A stretch of 64,000 nt of DNA from contig JAZDDX010000007.1 of NCBI GenBank assembly GCA_043809315.1, positions 1 through 64,000 on the forward strand. The letters are read 5' to 3'. Positions 1-38,310 of this stretch are shown here, piece by piece. Every line of letters begins with the position of its first letter. Position 1 is the stretch's first letter. The translations under genes were made by a program, and so were the position numbers. Source of the DNA: Pseudomonadota bacterium (GTDB taxonomy: Bacteria; Bdellovibrionota_G; JALEGL01; DATDPG01). The notes beneath the pieces are model-generated. The model was not told the origin of the DNA. It searched no databases and was given only the letters and a program-made list of their open reading frames with translations.

Positions 1-2
1 CC

Positions 3-242
3 TACAACAAGGTCTTTGCAGCGCTGGGGCTGCCCGTACGATCTACTCACACGCTGCGTCACACATTCGCCACGCTCTACACGGAGCAGACGCGAAACCG
101 TATGGCGACCCAGGGCGTGTTGGGGCACTCATCGTCGAGCATGACGGATCGCTACGCAAAGCCGACGCTGAAAGCGCAGCGGGACTCGATGGAGGACTTC
201 CTCGTCGGGAAAAGTAGGCCGGTCTCAGAAAGTAAACCGTAA
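3..242 (+). CDS. Tyrosine recombinase/integrase, C-terminal part (truncated by window start)
   Basis: Hand translation from base 3: YNKVFAALGLPVRSTHTLRHTFATLYTEQTRNRMATQGVLGHSSSSMTDRYAK...*. Shows HxLR, LGH and the catalytic Tyr; homologous to the integrase at 36900-38141. Not in the ORF track. Confidence 0.9.
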   Translation, partial: YNKVFAALGLPVRSTHTLRHTFATLYTEQTRNRMATQGVLGHSSSSMTDRYAKPTLKAQRDSMEDFLVGKSRPVSESKP

Positions 243-258
243 AGAGATGAAACGAGCT

Positions 259-278
259 GTTCCACAAAGTTCCACAAA
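259..278 (+). repeat. Tandem 10-bp repeat GTTCCACAAA x2, putative integrase arm sites
   Basis: Starts 72 nt from the tRNA 3' end, the same spacing as at 15316, 18340 and 38147. Confidence 0.7.
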
Positions 279-330
279 ACGCCCTTCGGGAGCTCTCGAT
301 CTTCGTGATTTCAATGAGTTAGAAAAAAAA

Positions 331-420
331 TGGCGGAGAGAGAGGGATTCGAACCCCCGATACCCTTACGGGTACACCTGATTTCGAGTCAGGCGCCTTC
401 AACCACTCGGCCATCTCTCC
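331..420 (-). tRNA. tRNA-Ser(CGA)
   Basis: Reverse complement folds as a cloverleaf with long variable arm; anticodon arm CCTGA-CT CGA AA-TCAGG; GGTTCGAATCC; CCA end. Confidence 0.95.
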
Positions 421-901
421 GCTTTTCGGCCCTGCGCTCCTTGAAAAAATCTTTCAGGAGCTGGGCGCACTCAAACTCACATACGCCGGAAACGATCTCG
501 ACCTCGTGGTTCAGGCCGAGAATCTTCCGGTGCTTCGAAACGAACCGGAGCGCCCCCCCTTTGGGGTTGGCACAACCGTATACGACCCGCTTGATCCGCG
601 AAAGGGATATGGCTCCCGTGCAGAGGAGGCACGGCTCCACCGTGACGTACATCGTCGCGGTCTCGAGCCTCCAACTCTCGCACATCTCCGCCGCGTGCCG
701 GATCGCCAACACCTCGGCATGCGCCGTCGGGTCGTTCCGCTCCTCCCGGGCGTTCCCACCGGAGGAGTACAACTCCCCGTCGATCACGACGATCGCGCCG
801 ACCGGAACTTCCCCCGCAACCGCGGCCTCTTTGGCCCGGCGGATGGCAAGAGACATATAATAGGCGTCGGAAAGCGGCGCTCTTTTGTCGGACTCGGTCA
901 T
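389..901 (-). CDS. tadA: tRNA adenosine(34) deaminase
   Basis: GEVPVGA, DPTAHAE and EPCxxC deaminase motifs; next to tRNA-Arg(ACG). Confidence 0.92.
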   Translation of the reverse strand: MTESDKRAPLSDAYYMSLAIRRAKEAAVAGEVPVGAIVVIDGELYSSGGNAREERNDPTAHAEVLAIRHAAEMCESWRLETATMYVTVEPCLLCTGAISLSRIKRVVYGCANPKGGALRFVSKHRKILGLNHEVEIVSGVCEFECAQLLKDFFKERRAEKRRDGRVVEGA

Positions 902-909
902 AATCAGAA

Positions 910-986
910 TGGTGCGCCCTGGGTGATTCGAACACCCGACCCCCAGATTCGTAGTCTGGTGCTCTATCCAGCTGAGCTAAGGGCGC
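910..986 (-). tRNA. tRNA-Arg(ACG)
   Basis: GCGCCCTTAGCTCAGCTGGATAGAGC...CCAGA-CT ACG AA-TCTGG...TTCGAATC...ACCA. Confidence 0.95.
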
Positions 987-1082
987 GGAATCAGGGTCGG
1001 TTCCTTACTCAACGCGGGATATAATGTAAAGGGAAAATCTGGATCTGCTCCGCATCCCATCTTATGATTTGAGGAGTTGAAC

Positions 1083-5840: not shown

Positions 5841-7406
5841 GTGAGCCTCTTCCGCCCCATCCCACTCCTGGCCGCGGTTCTGGCTTTTTCTGTTTTCGTG
5901 AATTGCGGCTCCGATCCTGTCGCCAGCATCGATCGTGGCCTCACCACGACCACCCCGACCCCCACCCTTCGGCCGATCATCACGGTGACCCCGAACCCGA
6001 CCCCGACGCCGTTCCCGTCGGGCGGGACAGCGACGCCTACCCCTCGCGCGACCAGCACACCGAGACCGACGGCTACACCGACCCCGACGTCGACCCCCTG
6101 CACTGGATGCACACCGACCCCGACCCCAACGCCGAGACCGACGGCCGTTCCGGGATCTCTCTGGGTTACGGCTTACATCGACCAAATGGCGGCGGGATGT
6201 TTCTCCGGTTCGATGGGCGGCTGGTGGACCCCCGAGTATTGCTACGCCTCCGCGAACGACATCCCGTGGGACACGTTCAGCCACCTGGTCTACATCGGCT
6301 CGGACATCGATTCGAACTATCTGACCAGCACCAGCGCGCTTTTGAACGGGACCGACCACCTAAGCGCCGCTGCTCTCGCCACCGCAGGGCACGCACACGG
6401 AAAACCGGTCCTACTGAGTTTGTTGGCCAACGGAAACACGAACGGGATCAACGCCGCCAAGAACGACCCCAATACACTCGTGAATGATGCTCTGGCCGTC
6501 ATTCTCGCCAATCATTTGGACGGCGTCGATATCGACATCGAGAACGGCAGCGACGGCGGGTGGAGCCTGGTGAATGTTGCGGGGGACAAGGAGGCGATGA
6601 TCAGTCTGATCACCAAGATGCGGACCGCGTTCAACGGGCACAACGCCTTTTACGACGTCACCAAGCCGCTGATCATCACCTGCGCCGGGAGCGCCTGGGA
6701 CGCGAAGCTCTGGGCTGACCCGGCCGTTCACGCGCAGGTCGATCAGGTGAACTTGATGACGTACGGAATGGCCAGCGTGGGTCAGGGGAAGGCCTGGCAT
6801 CACAACGCCGTAAAAAGCCGGAATGCAAGCGGGGTGATCTTCGCACGTGATACCGGCGGAAACGAACTCCCGAGCATTCAATCGGCCTGGGAGATCTTCA
6901 AATCCCGCGCCGCATCGAACGGCTACGGCTCGTTCAACCACCGGATGCTCGGCGTCGGGATCGGAACCTACGGAAGCGGAACGAGCGGCGGAGTCTTGGC
7001 CTCCGACCACCTCAAGGGGATCACCGCCCCCTATCAGGTTTGGTCCACGGCCCCCGCATTCCCGAGCAGCTACTGGTTCACATTCTTCCACACCTGGTCG
7101 CTTTCTCAGATCACGTCCCGGATTCTGGATTTTCACAACTCCTCTGAGATCCTCTATGACACGCAGGCCAAAGCCCCCTATCTGTCGCTCGGTTCGACGC
7201 CGTCCGACGCCCAGTTCATCTCATTCATGAACGGGGAGGAGGCGGCCGATTTCGCGCAGTATTTGAAGGACGAGGGGATGGGGGGCGGGATCGTCTTTCA
7301 ATTGGGATACAGCCACTTGACCGCCACGAACAAGAGCACCGGCGCTGCACGCCCGGACCGCGATCCGTTCATGCGCGCGCTCAAGATGGCGGCCGGAATT
7401 CAGTAA
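5841..7406 (+). CDS. GH18 chitinase-like lipoprotein with Pro/Thr linker
   Basis: Lipobox-like VNC; long PT repeat; catalytic DGVDIDIE; NLMTY; YD..AKAPYL; GMGG. Confidence 0.85.
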   Translation: MSLFRPIPLLAAVLAFSVFVNCGSDPVASIDRGLTTTTPTPTLRPIITVTPNPTPTPFPSGGTATPTPRATSTPRPTATPTPTSTPCTGCTPTPTPTPRPTAVPGSLWVTAYIDQMAAGCFSGSMGGWWTPEYCYASANDIPWDTFSHLVYIGSDIDSNYLTSTSALLNGTDHLSAAALATAGHAHGKPVLLSLLANGNTNGINAAKNDPNTLVNDALAVILANHLDGVDIDIENGSDGGWSLVNVAGDKEAMISLITKMRTAFNGHNAFYDVTKPLIITCAGSAWDAKLWADPAVHAQVDQVNLMTYGMASVGQGKAWHHNAVKSRNASGVIFARDTGGNELPSIQSAWEIFKSRAASNGYGSFNHRMLGVGIGTYGSGTSGGVLASDHLKGITAPYQVWSTAPAFPSSYWFTFFHTWSLSQITSRILDFHNSSEILYDTQAKAPYLSLGSTPSDAQFISFMNGEEAADFAQYLKDEGMGGGIVFQLGYSHLTATNKSTGAARPDRDPFMRALKMAAGIQ

Positions 7407-7418: not shown

Positions 7419-7441
7419 TGGCGGAGAGGGCGGGATTCGAA
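7419..7441 (-). repeat. att direct repeat: copy of the tRNA-Ser(GGA) 3' end
   Basis: TGGCGGAGAGGGCGGGATTCGAA, identical to 18412-18434. Confidence 0.9.
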
Positions 7442-7712
7442 AAACCCGTCCCCAACGCCGCGGCATCGTTACGGAAATGAATAACATCAAACCGTTACGC
7501 TTCAAAGACTGCCGCCCATTACCATGAATTCCCGCCTGTAACCGTCCGCGTGTTCCGCAAATGTTCCGCAAGATGCTTATCTCGAGGTTTGAGTTGATCG
7601 TTCAATCACCCACTGTAGGAGAGTGAGTGACTTCTTTCAGTGGTTTCGGCCCCGCGCGCACGCAAAAACCTGAAGAGTTTGGGGCATCTTCTGGTTTTTG
7701 GGTCTCCGGTCA

Positions 7713-7782
7713 AAAATCCCCACCCCCCGCCCTCCACGAGGAATAAGTGGAAAGAGAGAGGCAGTCGGGGGGTGGGGATTTT
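7713..7782. repeat. 17-bp perfect inverted repeat (hairpin)
   Basis: AAAATCCCCACCCCCCG (7713-7729) pairs with CGGGGGGTGGGGATTTT (7766-7782); a second IR at 7663-7676/7687-7700. Confidence 0.8.
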
Positions 7783-7831
7783 CTCCTACGACCTGCGCGC
7801 GGGGCCGGGGTCCAGACGGAGGGGAGGAAAT

Positions 7832-8488
7832 TCAATAAATAAAGGGGAAGAGCCGTTTGGTATGGGATTGGTAAGTCGCGTACTGCTCCCCAAACTTGGC
7901 TGCCAACGCCGTTTCTTCTGCGCCGATCCGCTTGGAATAGGCATACAGAAGGACCGGCCAGGCGACGAGCGAGCAAAGCGGAACGTCGAGAAGAAATGGA
8001 AGAAAGCCCCAGAAAAGGATCGCGCCGGTGTAGCTCGGATGCCGAATATTTCGGTATACACCGTGTTGGATCAGTTGGTGCCCGTCTTGCGTCACAACAG
8101 CGGCTGTGAACCATCTTCCAAGCGTCCGGATGGCAACAACGCGGAAGATCATTCCGCCCGTGGTGAGGATAGCGCCGACGATCGAAAAGGGATCGGCACA
8201 AGGCGGCGAATCGCGGAGTCGCCGATCCCACAGATAAACTCCATACGAAAGCGCGCAGACGAAGTACGCGGCGACCTGCAGGATCAACAGCGTCGAACGG
8301 TCTTCGTGGGTTGCCTGTTCCTTCCCAAGCTTGGCGTAGCGAAGATCTGGTTGGCTTCCGATCAGGACGACGCCGAGGACAAAAAAGAGCCAGAAACGCC
8401 AGTCGATCAGAGGGGTTCGAACGAAGATCGCAGGGATCCCAAGAAGAAGCGCCGGGATGAAGACGGCTTTGAGCCACCTGGGAAGCAC
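7832..8488 (-). CDS. Isoprenylcysteine carboxyl methyltransferase (ICMT/Ste14) family membrane protein
   Basis: TLGRWF...HQLIQHGVYRNIRHPSYTG...RIGAEE..L..KFGEQY..Y...TKRLFPFIY. Confidence 0.88.
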   Translation of the reverse strand: MLPRWLKAVFIPALLLGIPAIFVRTPLIDWRFWLFFVLGVVLIGSQPDLRYAKLGKEQATHEDRSTLLILQVAAYFVCALSYGVYLWDRRLRDSPPCADPFSIVGAILTTGGMIFRVVAIRTLGRWFTAAVVTQDGHQLIQHGVYRNIRHPSYTGAILFWGFLPFLLDVPLCSLVAWPVLLYAYSKRIGAEETALAAKFGEQYATYQSHTKRLFPFIY

Positions 8489-8553
8489 GGGAGAACTCTA
8501 TCTTATTGTGATCGTTGGGAAAAGAAGATACACAGACGATGGAGGGCGACTCA

Positions 8554-11500
8554 ATGTCTGCCGGTGTGACTGATCTCTTTTCCGCGAGTTTCTTTGCGAA
8601 CGCCGCCCTCTTTTCCCGTCGAGAAATCACGACGATCGGGAAACAGACCGAGATTCAAAAATTCTTCAGCCGCCTGTTCGTGGAGGATCCGTCCATCAAG
8701 ATCTCGCTCCTCAAGAACGGGATGGTCACGGAAACCACGATCTCCGCCGTACAAGGGCCGGAATTCGTCGAAGGAGTTCGGACCACTACGGAAAAAAAGG
8801 GTCCATTCTCCGTCGTGCTTCGTTGTCTCAACGAGGTCTATATCTTCGAACTCGGCGGGCCGGAAAGCGGCCTTCCGGAAAGGATCTACAAGGTCCACCG
8901 GCGGTTTTCCGATCGGTACTCGACGGGGGAGTTCAGCATAACGGCGAAGCTGCGCGACCCGAAGGGCAACTCCTTTTCAGGGAAATTGGTCGATTATTCC
9001 GACCGAGGATTTGGTTTTCTCTGCCCGACCGAGGCGGAGCAGGTTCCCCTTTTGGAGGAGATCGAGGCCGAGATCGCCGGCCAAGCTCCAGTAACTTTCA
9101 AGGGGGAGGTTGCGCATCTCACGGCAGACCCCGGGAAGAAGGATGTCCGGGTCGGTCTTCGGCTCACCCGCGCGGCCGATCCGTCGGCGCTCGCGGATTT
9201 CCAGCGTTCCCTTCTTCCGAAGCTTTTCCCGGCCGTCCGGGAGGCGCGTTCCGACGCCGATTTCGACCGCGTGGCCGATCTCCTCACCGTGATGGCGGGG
9301 GTGGCGCGTCTTCCTAACCGCGCCAACCTGATCGCTCTCTGGAAAAGCCTCGGCCAGGGTCCGGATCGCCCGGCCGAGGTCTTTCTCGAACAGCGCGCAG
9401 GAAAATCCGTCGCAACGATGACGGCCGCGCAGGTTTATTCCCGGACTTGCTTTCTCCACACGTTCGCCATCGAAAAGAAGGAGGCGTTCGCCCTCCCCGT
9501 CGAGATGTTCCATCGGATGCGGGATTTCGCCATGCGGGAGAAGGGAGCGGAGTTCGTCTGCGGGATGTGGCCGGCGGGGCACCGCTTCATGGAGCGGTAC
9601 TACGCCGAATTCGTCCGGCGCGATTTCGATCCGGCCGACCACCATTTCGAGACGGTGGAGGTGACAAGATTCACCTCTTCGGGGAATGGGAAGCGGAGTC
9701 CCAGGTTCGATGTCGCGACGGCGACCCGGGAGGAGGAGGCTACGGCCTGGGAGACGATCCGATCGACAGCTAGCCCGGTCCTGTTCGAAGCCGCCGACTG
9801 GGGAGAGAAAGATCTGTCGCTCCAGAAAGTCGGGGAGGCTTATCGGAAAGCGGGCCACCTCCGAAGCCGGGAAATCGTGGCGCTACGGGAGAAAGGGAAG
9901 CTCCTGGCCTTCGCGACGGTCGAATATTCGTCCGGCGGCGCGGGGGTTTTCGGCCTGGCGAACAGCTTCCGGATCTATTTCTGCGAGGGATCGGCGGTCG
10001 AGCAGCCAGCCATCGGGACCGCATTGATCACCGATGTGTTGGGACGGTACGCCGATCGGAAGATCCCGACCGGTTGTCTTTACGGAAACGAAAAGTTGGA
10101 TTGGCTCAAGGGGATTCCTGGGTTTGAAGCGGCTCTCGGCTCGGTGTCTCTTTGGATCGTGCGTCGGACACGGGCGAAGGCGTTTTTGCGACACCTGGAG
10201 CGGGTCAACTGGGAGCTTAGCCTGTTCCGCGGCGGCAAAACGCGGGTCCGCCCTTCCCTTCTCCAAGCGTTCGATTACCAGTCCGAACCGTTCAAACCGC
10301 GGAAGTGCATGCGACTGGAGGATGCGGCCGGGGTGGATGGAGTCTCGGGACGTCTGAAACGGGCGGGGGAGTCGGCCTGCCCGGTGCGCCTGGCGAACCT
10401 CGATACGTACGGCGCTTGTTTGATCCCGGAACAGCCGTTCAATGTGGAAGTCGGCGACGACTTCACGCTGGAGCTCAAGCTCGGGAATGCCCCTGAGATG
10501 ACGCTACAAGCGTTGGTGCGGTTTTCCGAGTCGCGGATCGCGCCCGGATTTCAGGCCCAGGCATTGGTGATTGGAATCGAATTCATCGGCGCTCCAATTG
10601 GCCATCTCGAAAGCATTCGCGACTTTGTGTTTTCACGCTTGAATCCAGAGGTTAAGTTGTTTTGCGCTGGCGATTTTGACCCCTTAGCTGAGTTGTTGCA
10701 ACGATCCAAATATCTCGACTACTTTGAATCCACCGATCATGAACGGATTATTCGAGAGGCAAAGCCAACTTTCGACGCGATCAACAAGCTTTACCCTGAT
10801 TTAGCGCGAGTCACCGTTCTTCGTTCGGATCGACTGGTCATTGGAAGTCATTCCTTCTTTCGAATGAACTCGCGAACGTGGCAGCTCCATCAATTAGCCG
10901 TTGATCCCGATTTGTCGCTTTACAAGAAAAAGATACCGACAAAGATCATCCTTCAAAGCACTTTTGAATATCTTTGCCTCGATCCAAGGATTGAGTACTT
11001 CGTCACGTATTTCAACGACGATGCAGCCATAGCTCGGGCCTATTTTGAAGCGGGGCAGAGTCACCACAATGCACGTGATGTGGCATTCGTGCCGACCAGG
11101 TGGACGCCTATCGAGCATATTGACGCCGCTCGCCCCCCTATCGCGTCTCGCAGCGCAGAGGCCACTTCCGAGGAGGTGGCTGCGATTTCTGACTATTTGA
11201 CGGCGATTGTTCCAAAACTTGAATATGAATCTCTTGAGTATTCGGACCCACTGCTTCGCAAATTCTTGAAACAGTGGACCAGTGAACCGATTGATCGTGT
11301 GAGGAAGGTTTTTGTTGCGCGGGACAAGAAAGGCGAAATTCGGGTATTTGTGCTCGCTAATCTATGTCCCCCTAGCCTAAACTTTCTTGGGGTGCTCGAT
11401 AATTTTCGTCTCTTTGAGGTGCCCTGGTGCAACGTCGACACGCGGCAGATGCGCCTAGATCTTGTTTCTCACACGCTCGACTACTATAAAAAGGCCGGCC

Positions 11501-27717: not shown

Positions 27718-27736
27718 AGCCTGACAGCCGCGATTG

Positions 27737-27771: not shown

Positions 27772-27795
27772 AGGCTGTTTTAGATCACAGACCGC

Positions 27796-28869
27796 TTACT
27801 GCGCTACAATGGTGTCGGTCAGAATCACCCTGACCTTCTTCCCCTCCACCTTATCCGGAAGGCCGTCAGGACGCTGCCCTCGGGGCGATTCCACGTACAG
27901 AACGATCGCCGCCTCGACCGGGTTGTCCTCCGCCGCTCCGACGCCGACGCCCAAGACACCGGGATGGAGGAAAAACTCATTTTCATGGCGCTCTTTGATC
28001 CGTTTCGCTTCATCCACGTCGCTCTCGCCGGGCGTGACCCCTTGGAAGGCCGCCGCCATCGGCTCGATCCCGGCCAGGGTGGTGCCACCGCAGTTGTTCC
28101 CCGCAAACAAGAAGGTGTGGCTGTTCTTTACAAACGCGTTCACGACGTCCTGGATCGGGTTGTAGATCGTCGTGGAGTTGCTCCCGGCGTACAGAAGGCC
28201 GACCGGATTAGGGGTTCCGTCGTTCGATACTAGGAGCGAGCCCGAATCCCCCCCCGCGCTCATGTTCCCGGTCGCGATCTGGTTGGTATACAGGACGTTG
28301 AACTTCTTCCCTTTTCCGCAGCCCTGTTGGTACTGGATCTGGACCGTCATGCTGATCGACTGCACCGTGCCGGTCGTGAATCCGGTCGTGCGGCCGCTCT
28401 TCATGACCGGAAGCCCGATCGTTGCGGCCTGGATGTTGGAGCAAGGAACACCGACATCCAAGATCGTCCCGCTGGAATCCACCATGCCGGAACGCGCTTT
28501 CGAGAGAGCCGCATCCACGTTGGCTCCCAGGGGAATCACGTTGCCGATGAAGTCGCCGACGATGTTGCCGGTGGCGCGGCAGGAGCTGTCGATGAGGCCG
28601 GGTTGGAGCGTGTCCTCACCGGTCGCGGCGGCTCCCGAGCGGGCCAGGATGTGGTTGTTGCTCAGGATATGAAGCATGCCGTCATACAGCACGGCCGATC
28701 CGAGCGTTCCACCGCAACAAAACGCCTTGCTGCTGTCGTTCGCGCTTCCGCCCGATGTTCCCATCTTGACGGGCGGGGTTTGTTTCACTTGGTGCTGTGG
28801 GCCGCTGTCCGCAAATACCAAGCTGGTTGTGAAGAGAAGAAGAAGGGGTAAAGCTCTGAGAGGGTTCAT
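27796..28869 (-). CDS. Secreted trypsin-like (S1) serine protease
   Basis: Signal peptide; GTLG, LSNNH (His), VDAA (Asp), KSGRTTG, GGDSGS (Ser). Confidence 0.85.
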   Translation of the reverse strand: MNPLRALPLLLLFTTSLVFADSGPQHQVKQTPPVKMGTSGGSANDSSKAFCCGGTLGSAVLYDGMLHILSNNHILARSGAAATGEDTLQPGLIDSSCRATGNIVGDFIGNVIPLGANVDAALSKARSGMVDSSGTILDVGVPCSNIQAATIGLPVMKSGRTTGFTTGTVQSISMTVQIQYQQGCGKGKKFNVLYTNQIATGNMSAGGDSGSLLVSNDGTPNPVGLLYAGSNSTTIYNPIQDVVNAFVKNSHTFLFAGNNCGGTTLAGIEPMAAAFQGVTPGESDVDEAKRIKERHENEFFLHPGVLGVGVGAAEDNPVEAAIVLYVESPRGQRPDGLPDKVEGKKVRVILTDTIVAQ

Positions 28870-29002
28870 CGCTCTCCTCCATGGCGAAGGTTATCGAAAA
28901 AAAACCAGAGGCTGAACCGGCCCTTTACCACAGATCTTCCGAAACAAAAACCTCCCCGCCGCTTCCGTTCGGCCGAATGATTCCGAAGACTTAAAGAAGT
29001 GT

Positions 29003-29019
29003 TGGCGGAGGAGGAGGGA
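29003..29019 (-). repeat. att direct repeat (distal end of island C)
   Basis: 17-bp identity to 38219-38235. Confidence 0.9.
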
Positions 29020-29662
29020 AGCAGTCCCGCCCTTCGTAACTACGCCAACAAAAAGGAAAATACTTTCCGATCAGCAGGATAGCAATTCCTCAATATCATC
29101 CGATTACATCGGTTCACACGCATTTACAGGTCACCTGTTACCGAAATGTTACCGTAACCGATCATTCCCCTCCCCCACCTCCACCACCTTTTCGCTGGCG
29201 ACAAACGGCGGAGAGGAAACAAAAGCTGAATTGCGCTTCCAACCTTCTTCCGAGGGAGTTCCCTTCGGGTTCCTACGGGGTTCTTTCACAGTTCACTGGT
29301 AGGAACTCCGAAAGAACTCTGGCCAAAACAACAAGTGTCTGAATTCACAAATCAAAGAACGTGCCCCGGAAACTTTTTCCTCTCGCATTTTCCGCCGACC
29401 ACACCCCCACTACCATGTAAAAAAATGATTTTTGGGGTTGTGGTCGGTGCAAGAATGCTCGAGGGGTGGTTGGGGGCACGAAGAGAGATTTGGGATTCAA
29501 GAATGAGGTCTTTGGGTTGATAGAAGATGGAGAGTTTGGTTGATGGTTTGATGTTGGGAAGAGGCAAGGTGAGGGTGGACGTGTTCGGGGTTGGTCGGTC
29601 TCCGGAAAACGGCTGTTTACTATATTCGCTAAATTCGTTATATTATCTAGTGTAGTAAAGTT

Positions 29663-30253
29663 ATGAAAACGTCACCCCGGGAAAGACTGCTAACGTTTCT
29701 GAGCCGGAACGACTTCGCCACCCTCAAGGAGGCACATGCCTTCGGGGTCAGCAAGATGACCCTTTCCCACATGGTTCGAGGGGGGGTGCTCCACCGCCCG
29801 GCCAAACGCATTTACACAACCAAGACAGGTTGGCTGGCCGATCCCCTGCGGCGATATGCCCCCGCCTGCACCCTGTACGCTGATGCCGTGGTCTGCGGAG
29901 TATCGGCACTAGCCTATTACGATCTGACCGACGAAGAGGAAAAGAAGATCTGGCTCGCGTTTCCCCAGCACCATCGGATCGTCAACCAGGAGTACCGGCT
30001 GACCTACCCCAGCGGCCCGTCATACACCCTGGGTGTTACCCGGCATACGGTCGGCAATCGGGAGGTGCGCATTTACAGCCCAGAGAAGAGCGTGGTGGAC
30101 GCGTTCAAGTATCTTCCGATTGATGTTGCTCACAAGGCCGTTCGGGCTTACCTCAAGCGGAAAGACAGGGACCTCGACAAGCTCTCGAAATATGGCAAAC
30201 AGATGCGAAAGCCGCTGGATGATATTCTCACGGTACTTCTTTCGGATGAGTAG
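29663..30253 (+). CDS. AbiEi-family antitoxin
   Basis: N-terminal wHTH; SALAYYDLTD, IYSPEKSVVDAF; upstream of abiEii. Confidence 0.85.
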   Translation: MKTSPRERLLTFLSRNDFATLKEAHAFGVSKMTLSHMVRGGVLHRPAKRIYTTKTGWLADPLRRYAPACTLYADAVVCGVSALAYYDLTDEEEKKIWLAFPQHHRIVNQEYRLTYPSGPSYTLGVTRHTVGNREVRIYSPEKSVVDAFKYLPIDVAHKAVRAYLKRKDRDLDKLSKYGKQMRKPLDDILTVLLSDE

Positions 30254-30256
30254 CCC

Positions 30257-31105
30257 ATGACGACCAACGCCGAAAGCATTCGGGCCAAGCTCCTGACTGT
30301 CTCCAAAGAGAAGAAGATCATCTTCCAGGATCTGCTGAACCGCTATGGAGCGGAACAGTTCTTGGCGCGACTTTCGGCGTCCCGATATGTGGAACGTTTT
30401 ATCTTCAAAGGCGGATCGCTTCTTACCTACCTGATCGAGTCTGACCGCCGAACCAAGGATCTCGATTTTTCTGTTCTCAGGATCGGCCACGAGGTTGAAA
30501 AGGCTCTCGAGGTCATCAAAAAGATCTTGGGAATCACCCTCGACGACGGGCTGACCTGGCTTTCTCCTCAAGGGGCGCCGCTACGCCACCCGGAGTTGGT
30601 TTATCCGGGCCTACGGATTAAATGCCCATTCAAGCTGGGCACGGCAAAAGGGATGGTTCGAATGGACCTGGCGGCTGGAGATCTCGTCGAACCCAGGAAG
30701 ATCTTTCTCGCAAGAATTCGTTACCGAGGCAAACCGCTGATCGGACCGGATTTTTCCATTATGGCTTACCCGCCTGAAACGATCTTCGCCGAGAAGATGC
30801 AAATCGCCGTCAAGCGGGGCGGCCAAAATACGCGAATGAAGGATTACTACGATCTGTTCAAACTCGCTCAGTCAAAGACTCTGGAGCCGTCTCTTCTTCG
30901 GCGCAGCATTGAGCGAACTTTCAGCAAACGCACCACAACGTTCACGACCACCTTGGACCTGAGCGACGAGAATTTGAAGAAGTTGCAGGTTTACTGGTCT
31001 GCGTATCTCCGAAAAATGACCATCACCGATGCGCCCGGAGCATTGAGGGAGGTTGTTCGCTTGGTTAACCGCCTATTAGAGGCGATTCACAAAGATGAAC
31101 GATAG
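30257..31105 (+). CDS. AbiEii-family nucleotidyltransferase toxin
   Basis: SIRAKL, FIFKGG, RRTKDLDF, YPPETIFAEK, NTRMKDYYD. Confidence 0.9.
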   Translation: MTTNAESIRAKLLTVSKEKKIIFQDLLNRYGAEQFLARLSASRYVERFIFKGGSLLTYLIESDRRTKDLDFSVLRIGHEVEKALEVIKKILGITLDDGLTWLSPQGAPLRHPELVYPGLRIKCPFKLGTAKGMVRMDLAAGDLVEPRKIFLARIRYRGKPLIGPDFSIMAYPPETIFAEKMQIAVKRGGQNTRMKDYYDLFKLAQSKTLEPSLLRRSIERTFSKRTTTFTTTLDLSDENLKKLQVYWSAYLRKMTITDAPGALREVVRLVNRLLEAIHKDER

Positions 31106-31142
31106 ACTCGAACTTGCTATCCAACCGCAAAGAAATCTTAGG

Positions 31143-31832
31143 TTAAACTGGGGCAAAAAACTGTCTCCAGCTCAGGTAGGCCCCAACGACCAAGAAGGTG
31201 ACTCCCGTGATCTGTTTCCCCCATCGCTCGAGCCGGCCAAGGATGTCGAGCACCCTTCCGACGTAGTTCGCGCCGAAAGCGAGAAGAGTTGCGACCATGA
31301 CAACGGGCAAGGCCGTTCCAATCCCGAATAGCGTCGGAAGAATCACCGGCGACTGATTCGTGATCGCCAGAGGGATCAGGCTGCCGAAATAAAGTCCGGC
31401 GGACACCGGACAGAAAGAGAGACCAAAGATGAATCCCAGGAAGCCGATACCCCATAACCCCCATGCCTTGGCTCTATGAAAAGATCTCTCGCCCAGACTC
31501 CAGGAAGGGAGGGGAATTCGAATCCACCCGAGGACGATGAGACCGATGACAAAAAGCAACGGACCGAGAACCTGGTTCATTCGTCGTTGGAGAAACCATG
31601 CGACTGGGGGAATCTGAAGCAGGCCCGCAACAAGGAACGCTCCAAGGAGGACATATGCTGCGGCACGCCCCAGAGTGTAAATGAGCCCGCTGACGAAGAT
31701 CCTTTTTGAGGAGGTCACCTCACTCCCAATAAAGGAGATCGCTGCAATGTTGGTTGCCAGCGGGCACGGACTGATGGAGGTCAGAATCCCCAACCAGAGC
31801 GCCGTGACCGCGCCGACAAGGGCTGTGATCAA
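31143..31832 (-). CDS. DsbD/CcdA-like membrane protein (ArsG-like)
   Basis: LGILTSISPCPLATNIAAIS, LSFCPVSA; TTG start overlaps the upstream stop. Confidence 0.75.
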   Translation of the reverse strand: MITALVGAVTALWLGILTSISPCPLATNIAAISFIGSEVTSSKRIFVSGLIYTLGRAAAYVLLGAFLVAGLLQIPPVAWFLQRRMNQVLGPLLFVIGLIVLGWIRIPLPSWSLGERSFHRAKAWGLWGIGFLGFIFGLSFCPVSAGLYFGSLIPLAITNQSPVILPTLFGIGTALPVVMVATLLAFGANYVGRVLDILGRLERWGKQITGVTFLVVGAYLSWRQFFAPV

Positions 31833-32311
31833 GAAGGACCCTCCAGATACTGCCGCACCTCTGCAACGACGTATTGTTTGTAAGCATTCTCGTCCCGCAC
31901 AAGCTCCCAAATCTTCGCCAGGCTTTTCCACCGTTTCTGCGTCCCATTGTCCACATCCGCAACCACAAGCGACTTCGTGAAGAGCTGGTAATCCTTCACA
32001 AAGTGTTCGTTTCCCCCGTCTTCAACGTTGATCGCCTGCCAGACCAGATTTCCGTTCTTCATCTCCTTACCGAAGTTCTCCTGAATCGCCTCGCGGGCGA
32101 GGTTTTCCAGCTTGTGACATGTGACGCATCGTAGGGAACCGTGGAAGTAATAAACGCGGACAAAGTGTGCCTGGACAGGAATCTTGGGAGCATTCGATTG
32201 CGCCGCGGTTTGGGGTAGCTCCGTCCGTTTCGGACGCTGGCCCACCAAGAAAAAGGCGATCCCCAAAACGAGCAAGACGGTCGTCTGAAAAACAATGTCT
32301 TTTCGACTCAT
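31829..32311 (-). CDS. Periplasmic thioredoxin-like protein (ArsF-like)
   Basis: N-terminal anchor; VYYFHGSLRCVTC; NEHFVKDYQL.TKSL. Confidence 0.75.
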   Translation of the reverse strand: MSRKDIVFQTTVLLVLGIAFFLVGQRPKRTELPQTAAQSNAPKIPVQAHFVRVYYFHGSLRCVTCHKLENLAREAIQENFGKEMKNGNLVWQAINVEDGGNEHFVKDYQLFTKSLVVADVDNGTQKRWKSLAKIWELVRDENAYKQYVVAEVRQYLEGPS

Positions 32312-32727
32312 TCCAATTCCTTTCCGGTCAGCCGTTCTTGGCAACCGACGTCGCGCAGAACCGTCTCCATCCGCTCTACAACGGCATCGACGTGGGAGCG
32401 GACCACCGGGGTTTCCCCCTTGACCATACCCAGGTTTGTCAGGCGAAGGTGGCGCACTTCGGCAAAGCCTTTTTGTTCCAGCAGGGTGCGGGCGCAATCC
32501 TTCTCGCACCCGTCGATCGCCGCGATCGACTCGGCCCCTCGGGCAGCATCCAGGTACATTGGAATTCCGGCACCAATCGCCGCGAGGCAACCGAGACGAA
32601 CTTTTTCATGGCGCCCCAGAGCCCGACCGGCCTGATCGGCGATCGCCCCCAGATTCGATGCTCCCGAGCATACGTACAAAAGTGTGACTGCGGTGCCTCC
32701 GCACGAACAGGTCGTCCCACCAGCCAC
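32308..32727 (-). CDS. DGC-domain putative zinc-binding protein
   Basis: CSGASNLG, GCLAAIG, AIDGCEKDCA. Confidence 0.85.
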   Translation of the reverse strand: MAGGTTCSCGGTAVTLLYVCSGASNLGAIADQAGRALGRHEKVRLGCLAAIGAGIPMYLDAARGAESIAAIDGCEKDCARTLLEQKGFAEVRHLRLTNLGMVKGETPVVRSHVDAVVERMETVLRDVGCQERLTGKELE

Positions 32728-32729
32728 GT

Positions 32730-32978
32730 TTATTTCTTTGCCGCTGCGTTCATCAGCCATGTCACGATCTCCGATGTTTCCGGAATTCTCCCGGCCGATT
32801 TCACCTCGCCGTCCACCACGAGCGCGGGCGTCATCATCACGCGGAATTTCATGATGTCAGCCATGTTCTCCAATTTTTCCAGCTCCACCGTCAACCCCGA
32901 GGCCGCCACGGCTTTCTCAGTCTCCGCGTACAGCTTCTTGCACTTTGTGCATCCCGGTCCCAATACCTGGATCTTCAT
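32730..32978 (-). CDS. Small redox-active thioredoxin family protein
   Basis: MKIQVLGPGCTKC...VMMTPALVVDGEVKSAGRIP. Confidence 0.9.
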   Translation of the reverse strand: MKIQVLGPGCTKCKKLYAETEKAVAASGLTVELEKLENMADIMKFRVMMTPALVVDGEVKSAGRIPETSEIVTWLMNAAAKK

Positions 32979-32986
32979 CGTTCCTC

Positions 32987-34441
32987 CTATAAGAGAATGT
33001 TAAACACATATCCGACCACTATGATTCCCGCGCCCACGACGGCTGCGAATGTCACAATGAGCGGAACCTTCAGAACTTTACGTAAAATGATCATCTCCGG
33101 CAGCGACAGGCCGATGACCGACATCATGAATGCCAAGGCCGTGCCCAACGCCGCCCCCTTACCCAACAGCGCCTGCACCACGGGAATGATTCCGGCTGCA
33201 TTGGAATACATGGGAATGCCGATCAGGACGGCGAGCGGAACCGACCACCAGGAATCCTTGCCCATGATGGAAGCCATGAAGTCTTGCGGCACATAGCCGT
33301 GAATCCCAGCACCCACTGCAATACCGGCCAACACGTAGGGCCAGACTCTTCCGACGATCTCTTTGACGGCGTCGCGCCCGAACCTCGCGCGGTCCTCCCA
33401 AGTCACGTTGGTTTCGGCTCCAACAGAAGCTGGTTGTCCCGCGTCGTCCGTCGTCCGATAGACCCATTCCTCGACCCACTTTTCCAAGTGGAGTCTTCCG
33501 ATGACCCACCCGGCTACCATCGCAATGGCTAGGCCGGTACCGAGATAAAGTGCGGCGACCTTCCAGCCAAATAGGCCGAACAGGAGCACCAGCGCCACCT
33601 CGTTGACCATGGGAGCGGAGATCAAGAAGGAAAACGTCACCCCTAGCGGCACCCCGCTGGTCACGAAGCCGATAAAGAGCGGCACGGCGGAGCAGGAGCA
33701 GAACGGCGTCGGGATGCCTAAAATCGCAGCCAGAACATTGCCAACGGCCTCCCGTTTTCCGACCAGGATCCGGCGCGTGCGTTCCGGCGTGAAAAACGAC
33801 CGCAAAACCCCCACTCCGAACACAACCAAGGTGAGCAGCAGGACTACCTTTGGAGCCTCGAATACAAAAAACTCCACGGCAGCGGCTATGTGGCTGCCTG
33901 AAGACATGCCGAGCATCTGGTACGTGAAGAACTTTGAGAAAACCTCAAGATGTCGGTAGACCGCCCACCACACAACGACACCAAGACAAATGAGGAGTAC
34001 CTGAAGCCATCGTCGTGGTGGTTGGTCCTTAGTCGTAAGGAACGCTTCGATGCGGCGGCGTAGCTCGTCCCGTGTCTTTCGGAAAGCGTTGAGCCGATCC
34101 TCTTCCGAGCCTGTCACAGCTGCCGGATCGGGGAGCCCCCAATGGAGACGGCGGGCATTTCCCAGGAATACGGGGCACTCCTCTTCGGCGCACAGGGTGA
34201 TGACCGTATCGACCTCACCGGTGGGTACCTCCGCAACAGCTTTGGAACGATGACCCGAAATATCAATCCCGATCTCCCGCATAATGGTGATGGCTTCCGG
34301 GCGGACAGCGGTCGGCCTCGATCCAGCGGACCAGACTGGAACCGAGGAAGGCAAAATGGAACGTGCAATTCCTTCCGCCATTTGGCTCCGGGCCGAATTC
34401 GCCACGCAAAGGAAAAGGATTCGAGATTCCCGCTCAGTCAC
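32987..34441 (-). CDS. Fusion of thioredoxin-coupled arsenate reductase (ArsC) and ArsP-family permease
   Basis: N-terminal [32 protein letters not shown]-terminal [30 protein letters not shown]. Confidence 0.88.
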
Positions 34442-35528
34442 AGGTAGCGCACCTCACGGATTCGACTTTGGCCTTGTCCGACGGGAAGTAACGTGACCGG
34501 AGCCGGAGCGCGACGTTCACCAAGCCGATCAATACTGGCACTTCGACCAGGGGACCGATTACCGCCGCAAAGGCCGCCCCGTGATTGATGCCGAACGTGG
34601 CGATAGCCACAGCGATGGCCAGTTCGAAATTGTTCGATGCCGCGGTGAAGGAAAGGGTTGCCGATTGACCATACGTCGCACCCACCTTCTTGCTCATGAA
34701 GAAGGAGACGAAGAACATGACGACGAAGTAGATGAGGAGCGGGATCGCAATCCGCACCACATCGAACGGGAGTTGCACGATGTACTCCCCCTTGAGCGAG
34801 AACATCACGACGATGGTAAAGAGCAGGGCAATGAGCGTGATCGGGCTGATCTTCGGAATGAACTTTTCGTGATACCAAGTCTTGTTCTTCCACTTGATCA
34901 GCACAAAGCGCGTCGTCACCCCCGCAAGGAATGGAATCCCCAGGTAGATAAAGACGCTCTTGGCGATCTCTCCGATGGTCACATGGACCGCCACGCCCTT
35001 GAGGCCGAACCAGGTCGGCAGCACGGTGATGAATACGTAGGCGTAGACCGAAAAGAAGAGAACCTGGAAGATCGAGTTAAACGCCACCAGACCCGCGCAG
35101 TATTCGGTGTCGCCGTCCGCCAGATCATTCCAGACGATGACCATAGCAATACACCGCGCCAAGCCGATCATGATCAACCCGACCATGTACTCGGGCTTGT
35201 CATGCAAGAAGAGAACGGCGAGACCGAACATCAGAATAGGTCCTACGACCCAGTTCTGAACCAAAGAGAGTGAAAGGACTTTCACATTCTTGAAGACCGG
35301 CCCCATGTCCTCATAACGGACCTTGGCTAGCGGCGGGTACATCATAAGAATAAGGCCGATGGCAATTGGTATTGACGTGGTTCCAACACTAAGACGGTTT
35401 AGCGCCGGAACGACACCAGGAACCAAATAGCCGAGAAACACCCCGAATCCCATCGCAAGAAAGATCCAGAGCGTGAGGAAACGATCTAAGAACGAAAGTG
35501 CTGCAAAAGCTCCTGATTTCACTCTCAC
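34434..35528 (-). CDS. acr3: Arsenite efflux transporter Acr3
   Basis: [53 protein letters not shown]. Confidence 0.95.
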
Positions 35529-35980
35529 TTTACCCTCCCTGCATCCGCAGACTGCCTAATCGGCTTTGTCGTTCCGCTCTCAAAACAGTCAAGAACCCTG
35601 CAACAGGTTGCTGAAAGGTCTCTCGCTTCGACCGTTGCGGACAATTTTCTGAGCGAAGCCCTTATGCGTTTAAGGTCCCGGATCTTTGCTTCCACCTCAA
35701 CCAGCTTTGCATCGGCCGTTGTTTTCAAATCCCCGCAGGTTCCCCTGGGGCTTACGTTGAGTTCCAGAAGTTCCTTGATCTCCTTCAACGTGAATCCAAG
35801 CTCTTGGGCCCGCTTAACGAACTCGATTCTCCGGCTGTCATCCGGAGCATATTGCCGGTATCCGGTGCCTTTGGACGGTTTTCGGATGATCCCCTTTCGC
35901 TCGTAGAAACGGACCGTTTCCACGCCGACGCCGGATTGTTTTGCTAGATCACCAATCGTGAACTTTCGGCCCGAAGACAT
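35525..35980 (-). CDS. MerR-family metal-responsive transcriptional regulator
   Basis: [36 protein letters not shown]; Cys82, Cys126, Cys127, Cys132. Confidence 0.92.
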
Positions 35981-35986
35981 GGCCGA

Positions 35987-36018
35987 ATGTTACACCCCGT
36001 ACTAAGGTACGGAGTCAA
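35987..36018 (-). promoter_or_regulatory. MerR-type promoter/operator
   Basis: Minus strand TTGACT-CCGTACCTTAGTACGG-GGTG-TAACAT: 20-nt spacer containing a CCGTAC/GTACGG dyad. Confidence 0.88.
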
Positions 36019-36102
36019 GAGGTCAAAACAAAGACATTGGATGTATCGACAATAAAAAGTCAGTTCGATTCGATAGAAATCAAAGAATTGCGACCGTCAT
36101 TC

Positions 36103-36807
36103 TCACTTCCGTCGGATTCCTTTGAAAAATTCCCTTCGTCGGTGTTTTTCAGTTTCCTGAAAAGCTTCCAACGATTTGAGAAAGGTTTCGCCAAAGCGTT
36201 TCTGGAGCGCCTCGTATACGAGTTTTTCGTGGAGTGCCCCGACACTCAGATGCAATTCGTTCGCTAACTGCCGCACGAAAGAGCTGATTTCCCGGCTATG
36301 GTACCGAGCGATCCCAATCAAAGCCGGCTTCTTCGTGTAATCGAGACGCTTCGCCCTGCCCTGATTCTGCGGCTTCTTCTTACGACGTACATAGACCTCG
36401 GGAGGATTCTCCAGCTCATCAACCAATACCCTTCGAATCACTTCGGAAAGACTGACCGCGTTCTTCTTTGCAACCCCTTCCAATTGACCTTGGGTCCGTT
36501 CATTGATAACCACCCGTAAATTCACGGTCTTATTCTGATTTGACCATTGAGGAGATGGGCCCTTGGGAAGTGATTCTCCCCATCTCATCCCCGTTTCATG
36601 ATCGACCAGGGTTGCATAGATAAACTCCGTGATCGTCTCCCCATAATCCAGCGCTCTCTCACCGAGCGCATTCCGGAATTCCGGCTCCAGCCGAAGAGTC
36701 ATAAAGAGCTTCCGTATGAGCGCGGTGGATAGGCTTGGAAGGATCTGAGTCCGCCGAAGAACCAGGTAATCGGAAAAAGTTGGCTTTTCCTTGGGTGCCC
36801 CCGTCAC
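36103..36807 (-). CDS. Hypothetical protein with ribbon-helix-helix-like segment(s), divergent from the integrase
   Basis: LRVVINERTQGQLEGVAKKNAVSLSEVIRRVL. Confidence 0.55.
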   Translation of the reverse strand: MTGAPKEKPTFSDYLVLRRTQILPSLSTALIRKLFMTLRLEPEFRNALGERALDYGETITEFIYATLVDHETGMRWGESLPKGPSPQWSNQNKTVNLRVVINERTQGQLEGVAKKNAVSLSEVIRRVLVDELENPPEVYVRRKKKPQNQGRAKRLDYTKKPALIGIARYHSREISSFVRQLANELHLSVGALHEKLVYEALQKRFGETFLKSLEAFQETEKHRRREFFKGIRRK

Positions 36808-36899
36808 AGACCCATAAATCTAAAGGAATTCAAGGAGATGCACAATGCACAGAGTACAGACTCTTGTGGCCTTGCATTCGATCTATCGTGGCCGTATGT

Positions 36900-38141
36900 A
36901 TGACTCATAAATACATGCACCTAGTTCGACGAGAGATTGCAACTCGACCCCCGAAAGAGCGGTGGATTCGAATCCATAACCACCCAGGAATTGCCCGCCT
37001 GGAGAAGTGGAACCCTGTTTTAAAGCGATGGATCGATCCACGCCATGATGCCTACTGCCGCCTGAAGGTATTTTGCGCCTACCGGCGAATACGCGTCCTA
37101 GGCAAGAGCACACTCCAAAAGAAGCACTTCCAAACTATTCGCGAAGCCAAAGCCTGGCGGCTGGAGGCCAATCCCGAGCCGACAGCTCGCAAGGCGATCC
37201 AGGTAACGGTTGGGGACGCGATCGAAGGGTGGAGGGAGTGGTCCAAACCTCCAAGGTTTCGAAAGACTTCCTGGCTTCAATACGCCAAAGACGTTCGCCA
37301 CGCGGAGTCCCTCAAAGATGCCCCGATCGAAGGACTGACTGCACAGGATATTGACCGCTGGCTCCAGCACCTCAAAGATCCGTCATATCCCAAACAGAAG
37401 ACACGGGTGTCGTTCGAACGCGAGCTCAGCACACTTCAGACGATCTTCCGATGGTATCGGGAACGTCGAAATGAGAAGTTTCAGCACCCGATCCTGGCCC
37501 GACACAGGCAGGACTCGTACTTTCGGGATCCTCCCCTCGGGGGCATCGAGGTTCTCTCCGCCCATCAGGCGGAGGAATTCTTCGCCCGAATCTCCGCCAG
37601 ACATTCACCCGTCTTTCAGCGGACCGCGGCCCTACAACTCTTCGCCGGCTTACGAATCGGCGAGGCGTGCGGTCTTTATTGGGATTGCGTCGATTTCGAA
37701 GGAAGAACAATCACGGTTCGTCGGTCGTGCATTTGGCCCCAGCCTGCGATGAGGGCAGAGATCCAGGACACGACCAAGACCAGCTCGGTCCGAAGCATCC
37801 CGATCGTAGACCGCCTCTACGATCTTATAGTGACATGGAAAGCCGAAGACGGAGAGATGGAGATCGTCTGCCATAAGGCCGGGCGGCTGATCCGGCGGAA
37901 TACCGTGGCCGGAGCCTACGGGAAGGTGTTCCGACAGCTTGAACTTCGGGTCAAGAGCGTCACCCACATTCTCCGCCGGACGTTTGCCACCCTTCACGCC
38001 GAACAGACCCGAGACCTGGCTGCCACTCAGGCGCTCCTGGGACATACTGACATTCAGACGACGCAGATTTACGCGAAGGTAACAGATGGAGCCGTAAGAA
38101 GGTCGATGCCTGATTTCGCGTTCGGCCGGAGAAAATCCTGA
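36900..38141 (+). CDS. Tyrosine recombinase/integrase
   Basis: AGLRIGEACGL, TKT, HILRRTFA, LLGH, TTQIY; start uncertain. Confidence 0.93.
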   Translation: MTHKYMHLVRREIATRPPKERWIRIHNHPGIARLEKWNPVLKRWIDPRHDAYCRLKVFCAYRRIRVLGKSTLQKKHFQTIREAKAWRLEANPEPTARKAIQVTVGDAIEGWREWSKPPRFRKTSWLQYAKDVRHAESLKDAPIEGLTAQDIDRWLQHLKDPSYPKQKTRVSFERELSTLQTIFRWYRERRNEKFQHPILARHRQDSYFRDPPLGGIEVLSAHQAEEFFARISARHSPVFQRTAALQLFAGLRIGEACGLYWDCVDFEGRTITVRRSCIWPQPAMRAEIQDTTKTSSVRSIPIVDRLYDLIVTWKAEDGEMEIVCHKAGRLIRRNTVAGAYGKVFRQLELRVKSVTHILRRTFATLHAEQTRDLAATQALLGHTDIQTTQIYAKVTDGAVRRSMPDFAFGRRKS

Positions 38142-38218
38142 GACCTGTTACCTTTTGTTACCTTAATGGTGTTTTGGGTGAGTGTGATCTGAATGTTTTC
38201 AACTGGTTAAGAATTTTT

Positions 38219-38310
38219 TGGCGGAGGAGGAGGGATTCGAACCCCCGATACGAATCTCTTCGTATGCCGGTTTTCAAGACCGGTGCCTTCAACCACTCGG
38301 CCACTCCTCC
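38219..38310 (-). tRNA. tRNA-Ser(TGA)
   Basis: GGAGGAGTGGCCGAGTGG...CCGGT-CT TGA AA-ACCGG, long variable arm, CCA. Confidence 0.95.

Follow-up and report, generated by a model that had tools for sequence, protein, structure and literature searches.

The first 64 kb of contig C7 (JAZDDX010000007.1, assembly GCA_043809315.1), called the window from here on, hold three tRNA-Ser genes, and at each of them lie islands bounded by partial copies of the tRNA 3' end. We label these island 0, the element ending at tRNA-Ser(CGA); B (7419-15403), with GTTCCGCAAA repeats, and A (15388-18427), with TGTTACC repeats, which form an array at tRNA-Ser(GGA); and C (29003-38235), at tRNA-Ser(TGA). Because the contig starts where the window starts, island 0 is cut by the contig end and not by the window. 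The assembly comprises 2,422,068 bases (2.42 Mb) in 44 contigs and is 96% complete. On contig C17 a fourth gene, tRNA-Ser(GCT), carries the islands D1, D2 and D3, and the start of the same contig holds, on the reverse strand, the far end of island 0, a copy of the Ser(CGA) core with GGTCCACAAA/GTTCCACAAA 133 nt inside. With the three C17 islands and this far end, all four tRNA-Ser genes are therefore occupied, by eight segments bounded by attachment (att) sites, three of which (0, C and D2) contain integrase genes. The mobility of the islands is judged here from the assembly sequence alone.

The ends of the islands follow one plan (Table 1). The cores are 16-26 nt long, and those inside any one array have at least 16 nt in common. 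On the tRNA side two repeat copies with a 10-bp period, starting at 259, 15316, 18340 and 38147, lie exactly 72 nt ahead of the cores at 331, 15388, 18412 and 38219. On the far side repeats with an 11-bp period start at 7551, 15521 and 29136, that is 132, 133 and 133 nt past the cores at 7419, 15388 and 29003; across the islands, those on C17 included, the far-side offset ranges from 132 to 134 nt inside the far core. An earlier reading of the window, made from the sequence only, had described four elements with this common end geometry, with both repeat periods and both offsets, and had sorted the repeats into two types, GTTCCRCAAA (type 1) and TGTTACC (type 2). The offsets proved exact at all seven repeats, and the two types stand out sharply from chance. 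The pattern TGTTACC-N3-4-TGTTACC occurs four times in the window and a CCGCAAA tandem twice, against 0.00 expected in each case from shuffled sequence (100 shuffles for the former). Over both strands of the whole assembly the type-1 tandem has six matches and the strict TGTTACC tandem five, and every one of the 11 is at an island end; relaxing the pattern adds one match, on contig C24 at 99751. Tandem Repeats Finder caught four of the seven repeats (259, 7551, 15521 and 38146), the other three being located by direct reading and pattern search.

Outside the cores and repeats, two short boxes recur. One consists of GAATGATTTC, about 6 nt and then TTAAA, or close variants, 10-30 nt ahead of the core; it is present in both dialects of the window (15340-15387, 18370-18411 and 38175-38218) and in loci of relatives with other target tRNAs (L082-L100). 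The second, ATCAAACCG followed by T/A and a TAGC-like stretch, lies about 60 nt past the far core. Both are candidate core-type or host-factor sites.

Tandem arrays occupy three of the four tRNA-Ser genes. A and D1 are the tRNA-proximal members of theirs, beside an intact tRNA, and D1 directly adjoins the integrase-bearing D2, which also encodes Phage_rep_O-like and Replic_Relax proteins. The 72-nt spacer of D2 between arm and core holds an ISL3-family insertion sequence (C17 ~58390-59690; L103 ~8390-9690), whose transposase carries DDE_Tnp_ISL3 and Zn_ribbon_ISL3 and which is flanked by a duplicated 8-mer, GGACTTAA, an 8-bp target duplication; the insertion probably disables the tRNA-side site of D2. 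At the far end of the Ser(TGA) array the decayed remnant shows, ahead of 29003, a spacer box that resembles type 1 when compared by eye with the tRNA-side end of B, and its arm repeats are gone. Further out, a 17-nt match to the tRNA-Ser(TGA) core falls at 23263-23279, exactly at the start codon of an S46 peptidase open reading frame (ORF), with no arm repeat seen near it; it could have arisen by chance, the stretch being rich in GAG, or mark a former outer limit of the array.

Table 1. Features of the islands (window coordinates unless C17 is given; P, tRNA-side; P', far-side)
Feature	Position	Strand	Description
int0 fragment (island 0)	3-242	+	C-terminal 79 aa of a tyrosine integrase; PF00589 E 2.4e-8; cut by contig start
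P arm, island 0	259-278	+	GTTCCACAAA x2; core 72 nt further on
tRNA-Ser(CGA)	331-420	-	ARAGORN; attachment target of island 0
Far core, B	7419-7441	+	23-nt copy, identical to Ser(GGA) gene 3' end
P' arm, B	7551-7572	+	TGTTCCGCAA(A/G) x2; 11-bp period; 132 nt past core
Conserved non-coding three-way hairpin	7640-7815		Type-1 far ends; two terminator-like hairpins within GC stem
Cargo of B	7832-15309		ICMT-like 7832-8488 (-); PilZ protein, 1058 aa, 8515-11691 (+); 7TMR-DISM hybrid histidine kinase, 1061 aa, 11688-14873 (+); receiver-like, 144 aa, 14875-15309 (+); Pfam
P arm, B	15316-15335	+	GGTCCGCAAA GTTCCGCAAA; 72 nt to core; last cargo-gene stop 7 nt upstream
Core common to B (tRNA side) and A (far side)	15388-15403	+	16-nt copy of Ser(GGA) 3' end
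P' arm, A	15521-15542	+	TGTTACCGAAA TGTTACCGCAA; 133 nt past core
Cargo of A	15865-18330		AbiEii 15865-16749 (-); AbiEi-like 16721-17554 (-); Pfam
220-aa membrane ORF of A	17668-18330	+	Occupies position where an integrase would sit
P arm, A	18339-18359	+	TGTTACCGTT TGTTACCGAAA; 72 nt to core
tRNA-Ser(GGA)	18412-18505	-	ARAGORN; target of A+B array
Decayed remnant	27693-29002		Far end of Ser(TGA) array; 1.3 kb; degenerate core copy 27693-27718; one gene 27796-28869 (-)
Far core, C	29003-29019	+	17-nt copy, identical to Ser(TGA) 3' end
P' arm, C	29136-29157	+	TGTTACCGAAA TGTTACCGTAA; 133 nt past core
Cargo of C	29663-35980		AbiEi/AbiEii 29663-31105 (+); DsbD_2 permease; DGC-domain and thioredoxin-like proteins; ArsP-LMWPc fusion; ACR3-type (SBF) transporter; MerR regulator; Pfam
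intC	36900-38141	+	413 aa from ATG 36900; PF00589 E 1.5e-21; catalytic R, K, HxxR, H and Y present
P arm, C	38146-38165	+	TGTTACCTTT TGTTACCTTA; intC stop 5 nt upstream; GTTACC unit begins 72 nt from core
tRNA-Ser(TGA)	38219-38310	-	ARAGORN; target of island C
D3	C17 32986-42890		TGTTACCC far arm; no tRNA-side arm
D2	C17 42890-59703		Integrase 69% identical to intC; repeats of GTAACC/GCAACC form
D1	C17 59703-66840		GTTCCGCAAA-type repeats at -72 and +134; no integrase
tRNA-Ser(GCT)	C17 66840-66933		Core copies at 59703, 42890 and 32986

Integrases and cargo

Modelling places the recombinase of the family among the lambda/Tn916-like tyrosine integrases, with an extra N-terminal, putatively DNA-binding domain. 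Residues R252, K293, H356, R359, H382 and Y391 do not vary among the 13 family members aligned. The intC model (predicted local distance difference test, pLDDT, 84.6) has 41 Foldseek matches at E 0.001 or better, including Tn1549 Int (6emy, E 1.7e-11) and lambda Int (1z1g, E 2.0e-9). The N-domain (87 aa) is modelled as five strands and a helix (pLDDT 82.8). No Pfam arm-binding family is significant on intC; 22 of the 30 named Atlas neighbours of its N-terminal 96 residues carry PF02920, the Tn916 integrase DNA-binding domain (top score 0.96), and the remaining neighbours shown belong to arm-DNA-binding families. Lambda Int and Tn916/Tn1549 Int bind arm and core sites, and intC resembles them in its catalytic residues, its two-domain core fold, its additional N-terminal domain, modelled as beta-sheet plus helix, and the direct repeats, distinct from the core, in both arms of its sites. 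The islands differ from these systems in that just two repeats are visible per arm, at offsets of 72 and 133 nt, and in that no excisionase was found. We infer that the tandem repeats are arm-type sites bound by the integrase N-domain.

The sequence-only reading had assigned an integrase of island 0 to positions 3-242. The reading frame is indeed the C-terminus of a tyrosine integrase by PF00589, 53% identical to the C-terminus of intC and retaining the portion with HxxR, H and Y, but it amounts to a contig-truncated piece, and its N-terminal part was not recovered from the assembly when searched for with the integrases of four relatives. In a scan with intC of the contigs of other genomes the 80 retained of 153 relatives all come from other phyla and shed no light on the geometry; their identity is 21-38% over long matches, and only short C-terminal segments exceed this range. 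Viral contigs, scanned by integrase alignment, contain no close relative: identity is 23-36% where the match exceeds 85 residues, and values above 36% are limited to stretches of 42-52 residues, mostly of the catalytic part.

The claim that A and B are without an integrase was borne out. A six-frame search of the genome with PF00589 gave 10 matches, none of them inside A, B, D1 or D3; a search with PF00239 gave a single match, on contig C16, and none inside A, B or D1; and no integrase remnant was detectable in the six frames of these three islands. Their cores and both arm pairs are intact at exact spacing, and the last cargo gene ends 7-29 nt ahead of the arm, where the integrase ends in islands 0 and C. 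The 220-aa membrane ORF that holds this place in A was considered as a decayed integrase and rejected: BLASTP against intC gave E 0.022 over 66 aa, and the PF00589 signal is absent. An Atlas lead from this ORF to LRV repeats is weak (score 0.88).

D1 has the same four-gene arrangement as B. Between B and D1 the identity of the ends is 82% over 459 bp on the far side and 79% over 89 bp on the tRNA side, that of the proteins only 34-39%. The ends of A and C are 76% and 82% identical, and cargo similarity between them is undetectable at E 1e-3. The cargo of C includes an arsenic-resistance-like cluster. No conjugation genes were seen in any family member, and Pfam revealed no phage structural or packaging families in A, B, C or D1.

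Repeat dialects and cargo in related genomes

An integrase of the family, at E 1e-20 or better, occurs in eight of the 41 genomes searched, this one included. The earlier reading had proposed a search of related genomes for the arm/core geometry, and the geometry recurs there: 17 of 20 printed integrase loci have a two-copy direct repeat between the integrase 3' end and the tRNA, with a period read as 10 bp in 14, and in G005 the repeat of one far end begins 133 nt past the core. The distance from repeat to tRNA end is 72-75 nt in the five loci counted (L082, L095, L087, L086 and L097; tRNA-Leu, Ser and Asp); in L092 the repeat is farther from the tRNA, and L084 and L098 were not scorable for geometry. 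Among the target tRNAs of the relatives are Leu, Met, Pro, Ser and Asp, and each integrase has repeats of a different sequence. One of these loci, L097, is in the present genome: a distant family integrase on contig C23 (7888-9238), 29% identical to intC, stands at tRNA-Asp(GTC) with CGCTGGGTA x2 placed 72 nt ahead of the tRNA end, so that in this genome, too, the geometry extends beyond tRNA-Ser.

Across these integrases the repeat sequence follows the clade of the enzyme, two dialects going with two clades, as would be expected of arm-type sites. In a tree of 13 sequences intC, the D2 integrase and a G003 integrase with TGTTACCA repeats group together (support 95/93), as do two GTTCCRCAAA integrases (86/75); six of the 10 inner branches of the tree are unresolved. 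The proposal that the integrase-less islands share their arm codes with integrase-bearing ones thus fares unevenly. It stands for A and C, both TGTTACC, the latter with an intact intC, whereas B falls one fixed base short of island 0, because all four repeats of island 0 read CCACAAA and all eight of B and D1 read CCGCA.

The repeats were also sought beyond the family. The exact 20-mer GTTCCRCAAA x2 occurs in 30 unrelated metagenome stretches, none of the 30 with a family integrase and one near a tRNA-Ser. In this last stretch (L153, 5907-6106) three GTTCCACAAA-like repeats are separated by 109 nt from a tRNA-Ser(GCT) 3' end; the 5.9 kb upstream contain no family integrase, and a second copy of the core was not found. 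In G001 a TGTTACC tandem pair forms part of another element, which lies at tRNA-Phe and has a distant integrase; in G003 a TGTTACC site looks like a far end, and the 20 kb searched around it, reaching about 10 kb into the island, hold no integrase. A further TGTTACC match is in G012. Also in G003 (L260, C8 ~5900-6005), a tRNA-Ser with a GGGCGGG acceptor has ahead of it another repeat, two copies of about 24 bp (cagtattccgaattctgtatt-like), which may be the end of another kind of element.

The geometry is found at none of the four tRNA-Ser 3' flanks of G004, which has no family integrase, at none of the four of G003 and at two of the four of G001; the islands are therefore not fixed in relatives. 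Synteny gave no further information on site occupancy: the left flank (GH18) has no homologue in five genomes, and the right flank (SBP) is not beside a tRNA-Ser in G004 or G001.

The cargo of B can be followed independently of its ends. Its four genes (ICMT-like, large PilZ-type, 7TMR-DISM hybrid kinase and receiver-like) represent a multi-copy, chromosomal operon family spread across the order. In G001, of a sister genus, a syntenic counterpart with 33-63% protein identity (L123, C104) lies between a small gene and polA; this copy is the closest to that of B, and the block has no core, no repeats and no att sites. The flanks of the G001 locus map to contig C16 of the present genome (L130, 76000-90000), where the block is absent, and in G002, G003 and G004 polA is far from, or on another contig than, every kinase copy. 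As the operon stands beside polA in G001 and the C16 locus is empty here, an ordinary operon of the lineage has changed place and now lies, in this genome, between att ends.

Possible mobility of the integrase-less islands

What could have carried islands without an integrase to the end of a tRNA gene? With moderate confidence, we interpret the region as one family of tRNA-Ser site-specific islands in which A, B and D1 are non-autonomous elements, resembling cis-mobilizable elements (CIMEs), that are served by cognate integrases. Family members would use the 3' end of a tRNA-Ser gene as attachment site, each att site being built of a core, an integrase-side repeat pair 72 nt off and a far-side pair about 133 nt off, and the crossover would be placed within the 8 nt common to all four tRNA-Ser ends. 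A, B and D1 were most likely inserted by the cognate integrase of another family member and may still be excisable; the enzyme could act in trans from another tRNA-Ser locus, or do so after a relative has landed alongside. Arms are not kept by default, since loss of the tRNA-side arm has affected both the remnant at 27693-29002 and D3. In the accretion model outlined in passages of PMC5704250, the position beside the tRNA, at the gene-end site, is that of the latest insertion, and being tRNA-proximal A and D1 are accordingly read as the latest arrivals of their arrays.

Several observations speak against service by cognate integrases. The fixed A/G difference between the repeats of island 0 and those of B and D1 could change specificity; both variants have integrases of their own in relatives, and none stands beside G-dialect arms in this nearly complete assembly. 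The integrase int0 is seen solely as its 79-aa fragment at a contig end, and the ISL3 insertion has severed the integrase-side arm of D2 from its core. Arm binding by the N-domain is an uncertain step, as the fold search with this domain is weak (VIA best Z 4.1; AP2/GCC-box domains Z 3.1-3.8) and Foldseek returns nothing for it at E 0.001 or better; the arm-binding domains of lambda and Tn916 integrases have the same fold as AP2-like domains. No excisionase-like gene was recognized by Pfam among 21 proteins of the islands, mostly small ORFs. The cargo of B, moreover, is not peculiar to islands: 14 of the 17 genomes in the phylum set carry the operon family, frequently in multiple copies, and 11 operon loci of relatives contain neither a tRNA nor a type-1 or TGTTACC tandem in their 1.5-kb flanks, while six paralog loci (G004, G003 and G000) have no tRNA-Ser and no such tandem, one of them holding a tRNA-Phe. 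Finally, the relatives compared are of other genera, and within-species variation lies outside this sample.

It is possible, though rather doubtful, that A, B and D1 are instead dead remnants, which have lost their own integrases, are now fixed and show intact arms merely because the loss was recent. Such an origin is the standard one proposed for CIMEs in passages of PMC5704250, decay is evident in the same arrays (the remnant at 27693-29002, D3 with its missing tRNA-side arm and the ISL3 insertion in D2), and the assembly has no integrase with the exact repeat variant of B and D1. This history would require three independent and clean losses, each leaving a gene end 7-29 nt from an untouched arm and no integrase remnant in any of the six frames. 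Two of the three islands are, in addition, tRNA-proximal and presumably the youngest of their arrays, and the decayed neighbours show that arms are lost upon decay.

Movement in cis only, as in classical CIMEs, strikes us as distinctly improbable. In this scheme an integrase-bearing relative lands adjacent and the pair excises as a composite via the outer sites, and cis mobilization of a tandem of a CIME and an integrative and conjugative element (ICE) has been observed in streptococci, as passages of PMC5704250 relate. The tandem arrays at three of four tRNA-Ser genes, with cores sharing at least 16 nt within an array, would suit it, as would the direct contact of D1 with D2. The A+B array, by contrast, has no integrase at all and joins two members of different dialects, so that a composite would have a type-1 arm at its far end and a type-2 arm on the tRNA side. 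We also know of no reason why a diffusible lambda-type integrase should be confined to its own locus. Least probable of all, and by our estimate very much so, is that the tandem repeats are not integrase arm sites, being operators of another regulator or relics without a role in recombination. The weak fold match of the N-domain would allow this, as would the occurrence of the type-1 20-mer in 30 unrelated metagenome stretches of which none has a family integrase. It is hard to square with core offsets that are fixed at both ends, with repeats that come right after the integrase stop across genera and target tRNAs, with their covariation with the integrase clade and with the confinement of the tandems to island ends in this genome.

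How do islands served by cognate integrases compare with known systems? The sequence-only reading had suggested a helper/satellite system. One family with fixed geometry and integrase-less members is indeed present; the novelty was overstated, as passages of PMC5704250 already name such elements CIMEs, describing them as integrase-less, with attL and attR kept, in tandem with related elements, and thought to have arisen through decay and to travel with a neighbouring element. Elements of this kind are thus already known; the anatomy here is confirmed and richer than first reported, and the sharing mechanism is plausible. Like the CIMEs related to ICESt1/ICESt3 of Streptococcus thermophilus (passages of PMC5704250), the present islands are att-bounded, devoid of integration genes and arranged in tandem at the 3' end of a target gene: A, B and D1 retain attL and attR and have no integration or transfer genes, cargo families alone being recognized by Pfam. 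Unlike CIMEs, the family shows no conjugation genes, its integrase-less members bear no trace of a deleted integrase, A and B are two integrase-less elements of differing dialect with no integrase-bearing partner, and the family spans four isoacceptor genes. Tycheposons of Prochlorococcus, in the part of 10.1101/2020.12.28.424599 consulted, are small tRNA cargo islands moved by tyrosine integrases, sometimes in tandem and some with replication genes; they encode their own recombinase, and A, B and D1 do not. D2 alone combines a recombinase, a replication module and a tRNA gene as tycheposons do. The islands of the Islander collection are, as excerpts of PMC4383910 set out, likewise delimited by a tRNA gene on one side and the displaced 3' fragment of that gene on the other, with the crossover in the T-stem/acceptor region. 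Among the 3919 islands counted there, tandems of at least two number 125 and of at least three number four; arrays like A+B would be merged or missed, because a tandem member needs its own integrase (PMC4383910, in the same excerpts). Features of phage satellites (phage-inducible chromosomal islands, PICIs, or P4-like elements) are lacking in that Pfam detects no phage structural or packaging families in A, B, C or D1 and A, B and D1 have no integrase. Integron cassettes are promoter-poor, cargo-only units with a recombination site, moved by an integrase encoded elsewhere. They offer a functional analogy only, as attC sites act through single-strand folding and have no sequence or structural relation to the islands described here. 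Keyword searches of the literature returned no described integrase-less islands matched by arm dialect and spread over isoacceptor tRNA genes, which is not proof of absence.

We further speculate, as an unlikely but consequential extension, that the four tRNA-Ser genes form a shared docking platform over which a small number of integrases, each with an arm dialect of its own, shuttle operon-sized cargo-only cassettes from one isoacceptor gene to another via the 8 common nt, the cassettes being able to pick up ordinary chromosomal operons on the way. Such an arrangement would be an integron-like cassette economy run on lambda-type att sites and not a set of decaying islands. Integrase-less islands are usually dismissed as debris, and island finders that need an integrase per island merge or miss them. 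Cargo-only elements with complete, dialect-coded att sites, set beside decayed neighbours and with a matching intact integrase one locus away, offer a clean and testable case. Were integrase sharing true, the mobile gene pool would exceed what integrase counts suggest, and the core of the element, not the enzyme, would set the choice among isoacceptor tRNA genes. Island ends elsewhere in this poorly known phylum could, in addition, be sought by means of the integrase family and its 72/133-nt geometry.

Far-end hairpin and neighbouring genes

The type-1 far ends share a conserved non-coding structure past the arm, with counterparts to that of B at C17 ~59925-60100 (D1) and, on the reverse strand, at C17 ~500-690 (island 0). 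A pair of hairpins with A-tract and T-tract is enclosed in a GC-rich outer stem, and the alignment shows compensatory changes among B, D1 and island 0; the fold z-scores are -5.4 on the plus strand and -7.3 on the minus strand. Possible readings are a block of terminators acting in both directions and a structured DNA or RNA element. In an Rfam search over 1-39000 tRNAs alone passed, and the hairpin matches no family. The conserved 300-400 bp past the far arms were also considered as a small excisionase gene, a candidate rejected because of stops in every frame in both dialects.

Several genes around the islands deserve mention. The S46 peptidase gene is split in the window (23262-25548), one ORF (23262-24647) covering profile positions 5-338 and another (24373-25548) positions 381-697; a frameshift, a pseudogene or an assembly error accounts for the split. 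Between tRNA-Ser(CGA) and tRNA-Arg(ACG) (window 389-986) lies a tadA-like tRNA adenosine deaminase gene (389-901, minus strand), tRNA-Arg(ACG) being the usual substrate of a tadA-type enzyme. Just outside island C, about 640 bp from tRNA-Ser(TGA), a seryl-tRNA synthetase gene occupies 38952-40229 on the minus strand. In a 935-aa ORF at 20994-23801 an MFS transporter domain and a spermidine/spermine synthase domain are fused.

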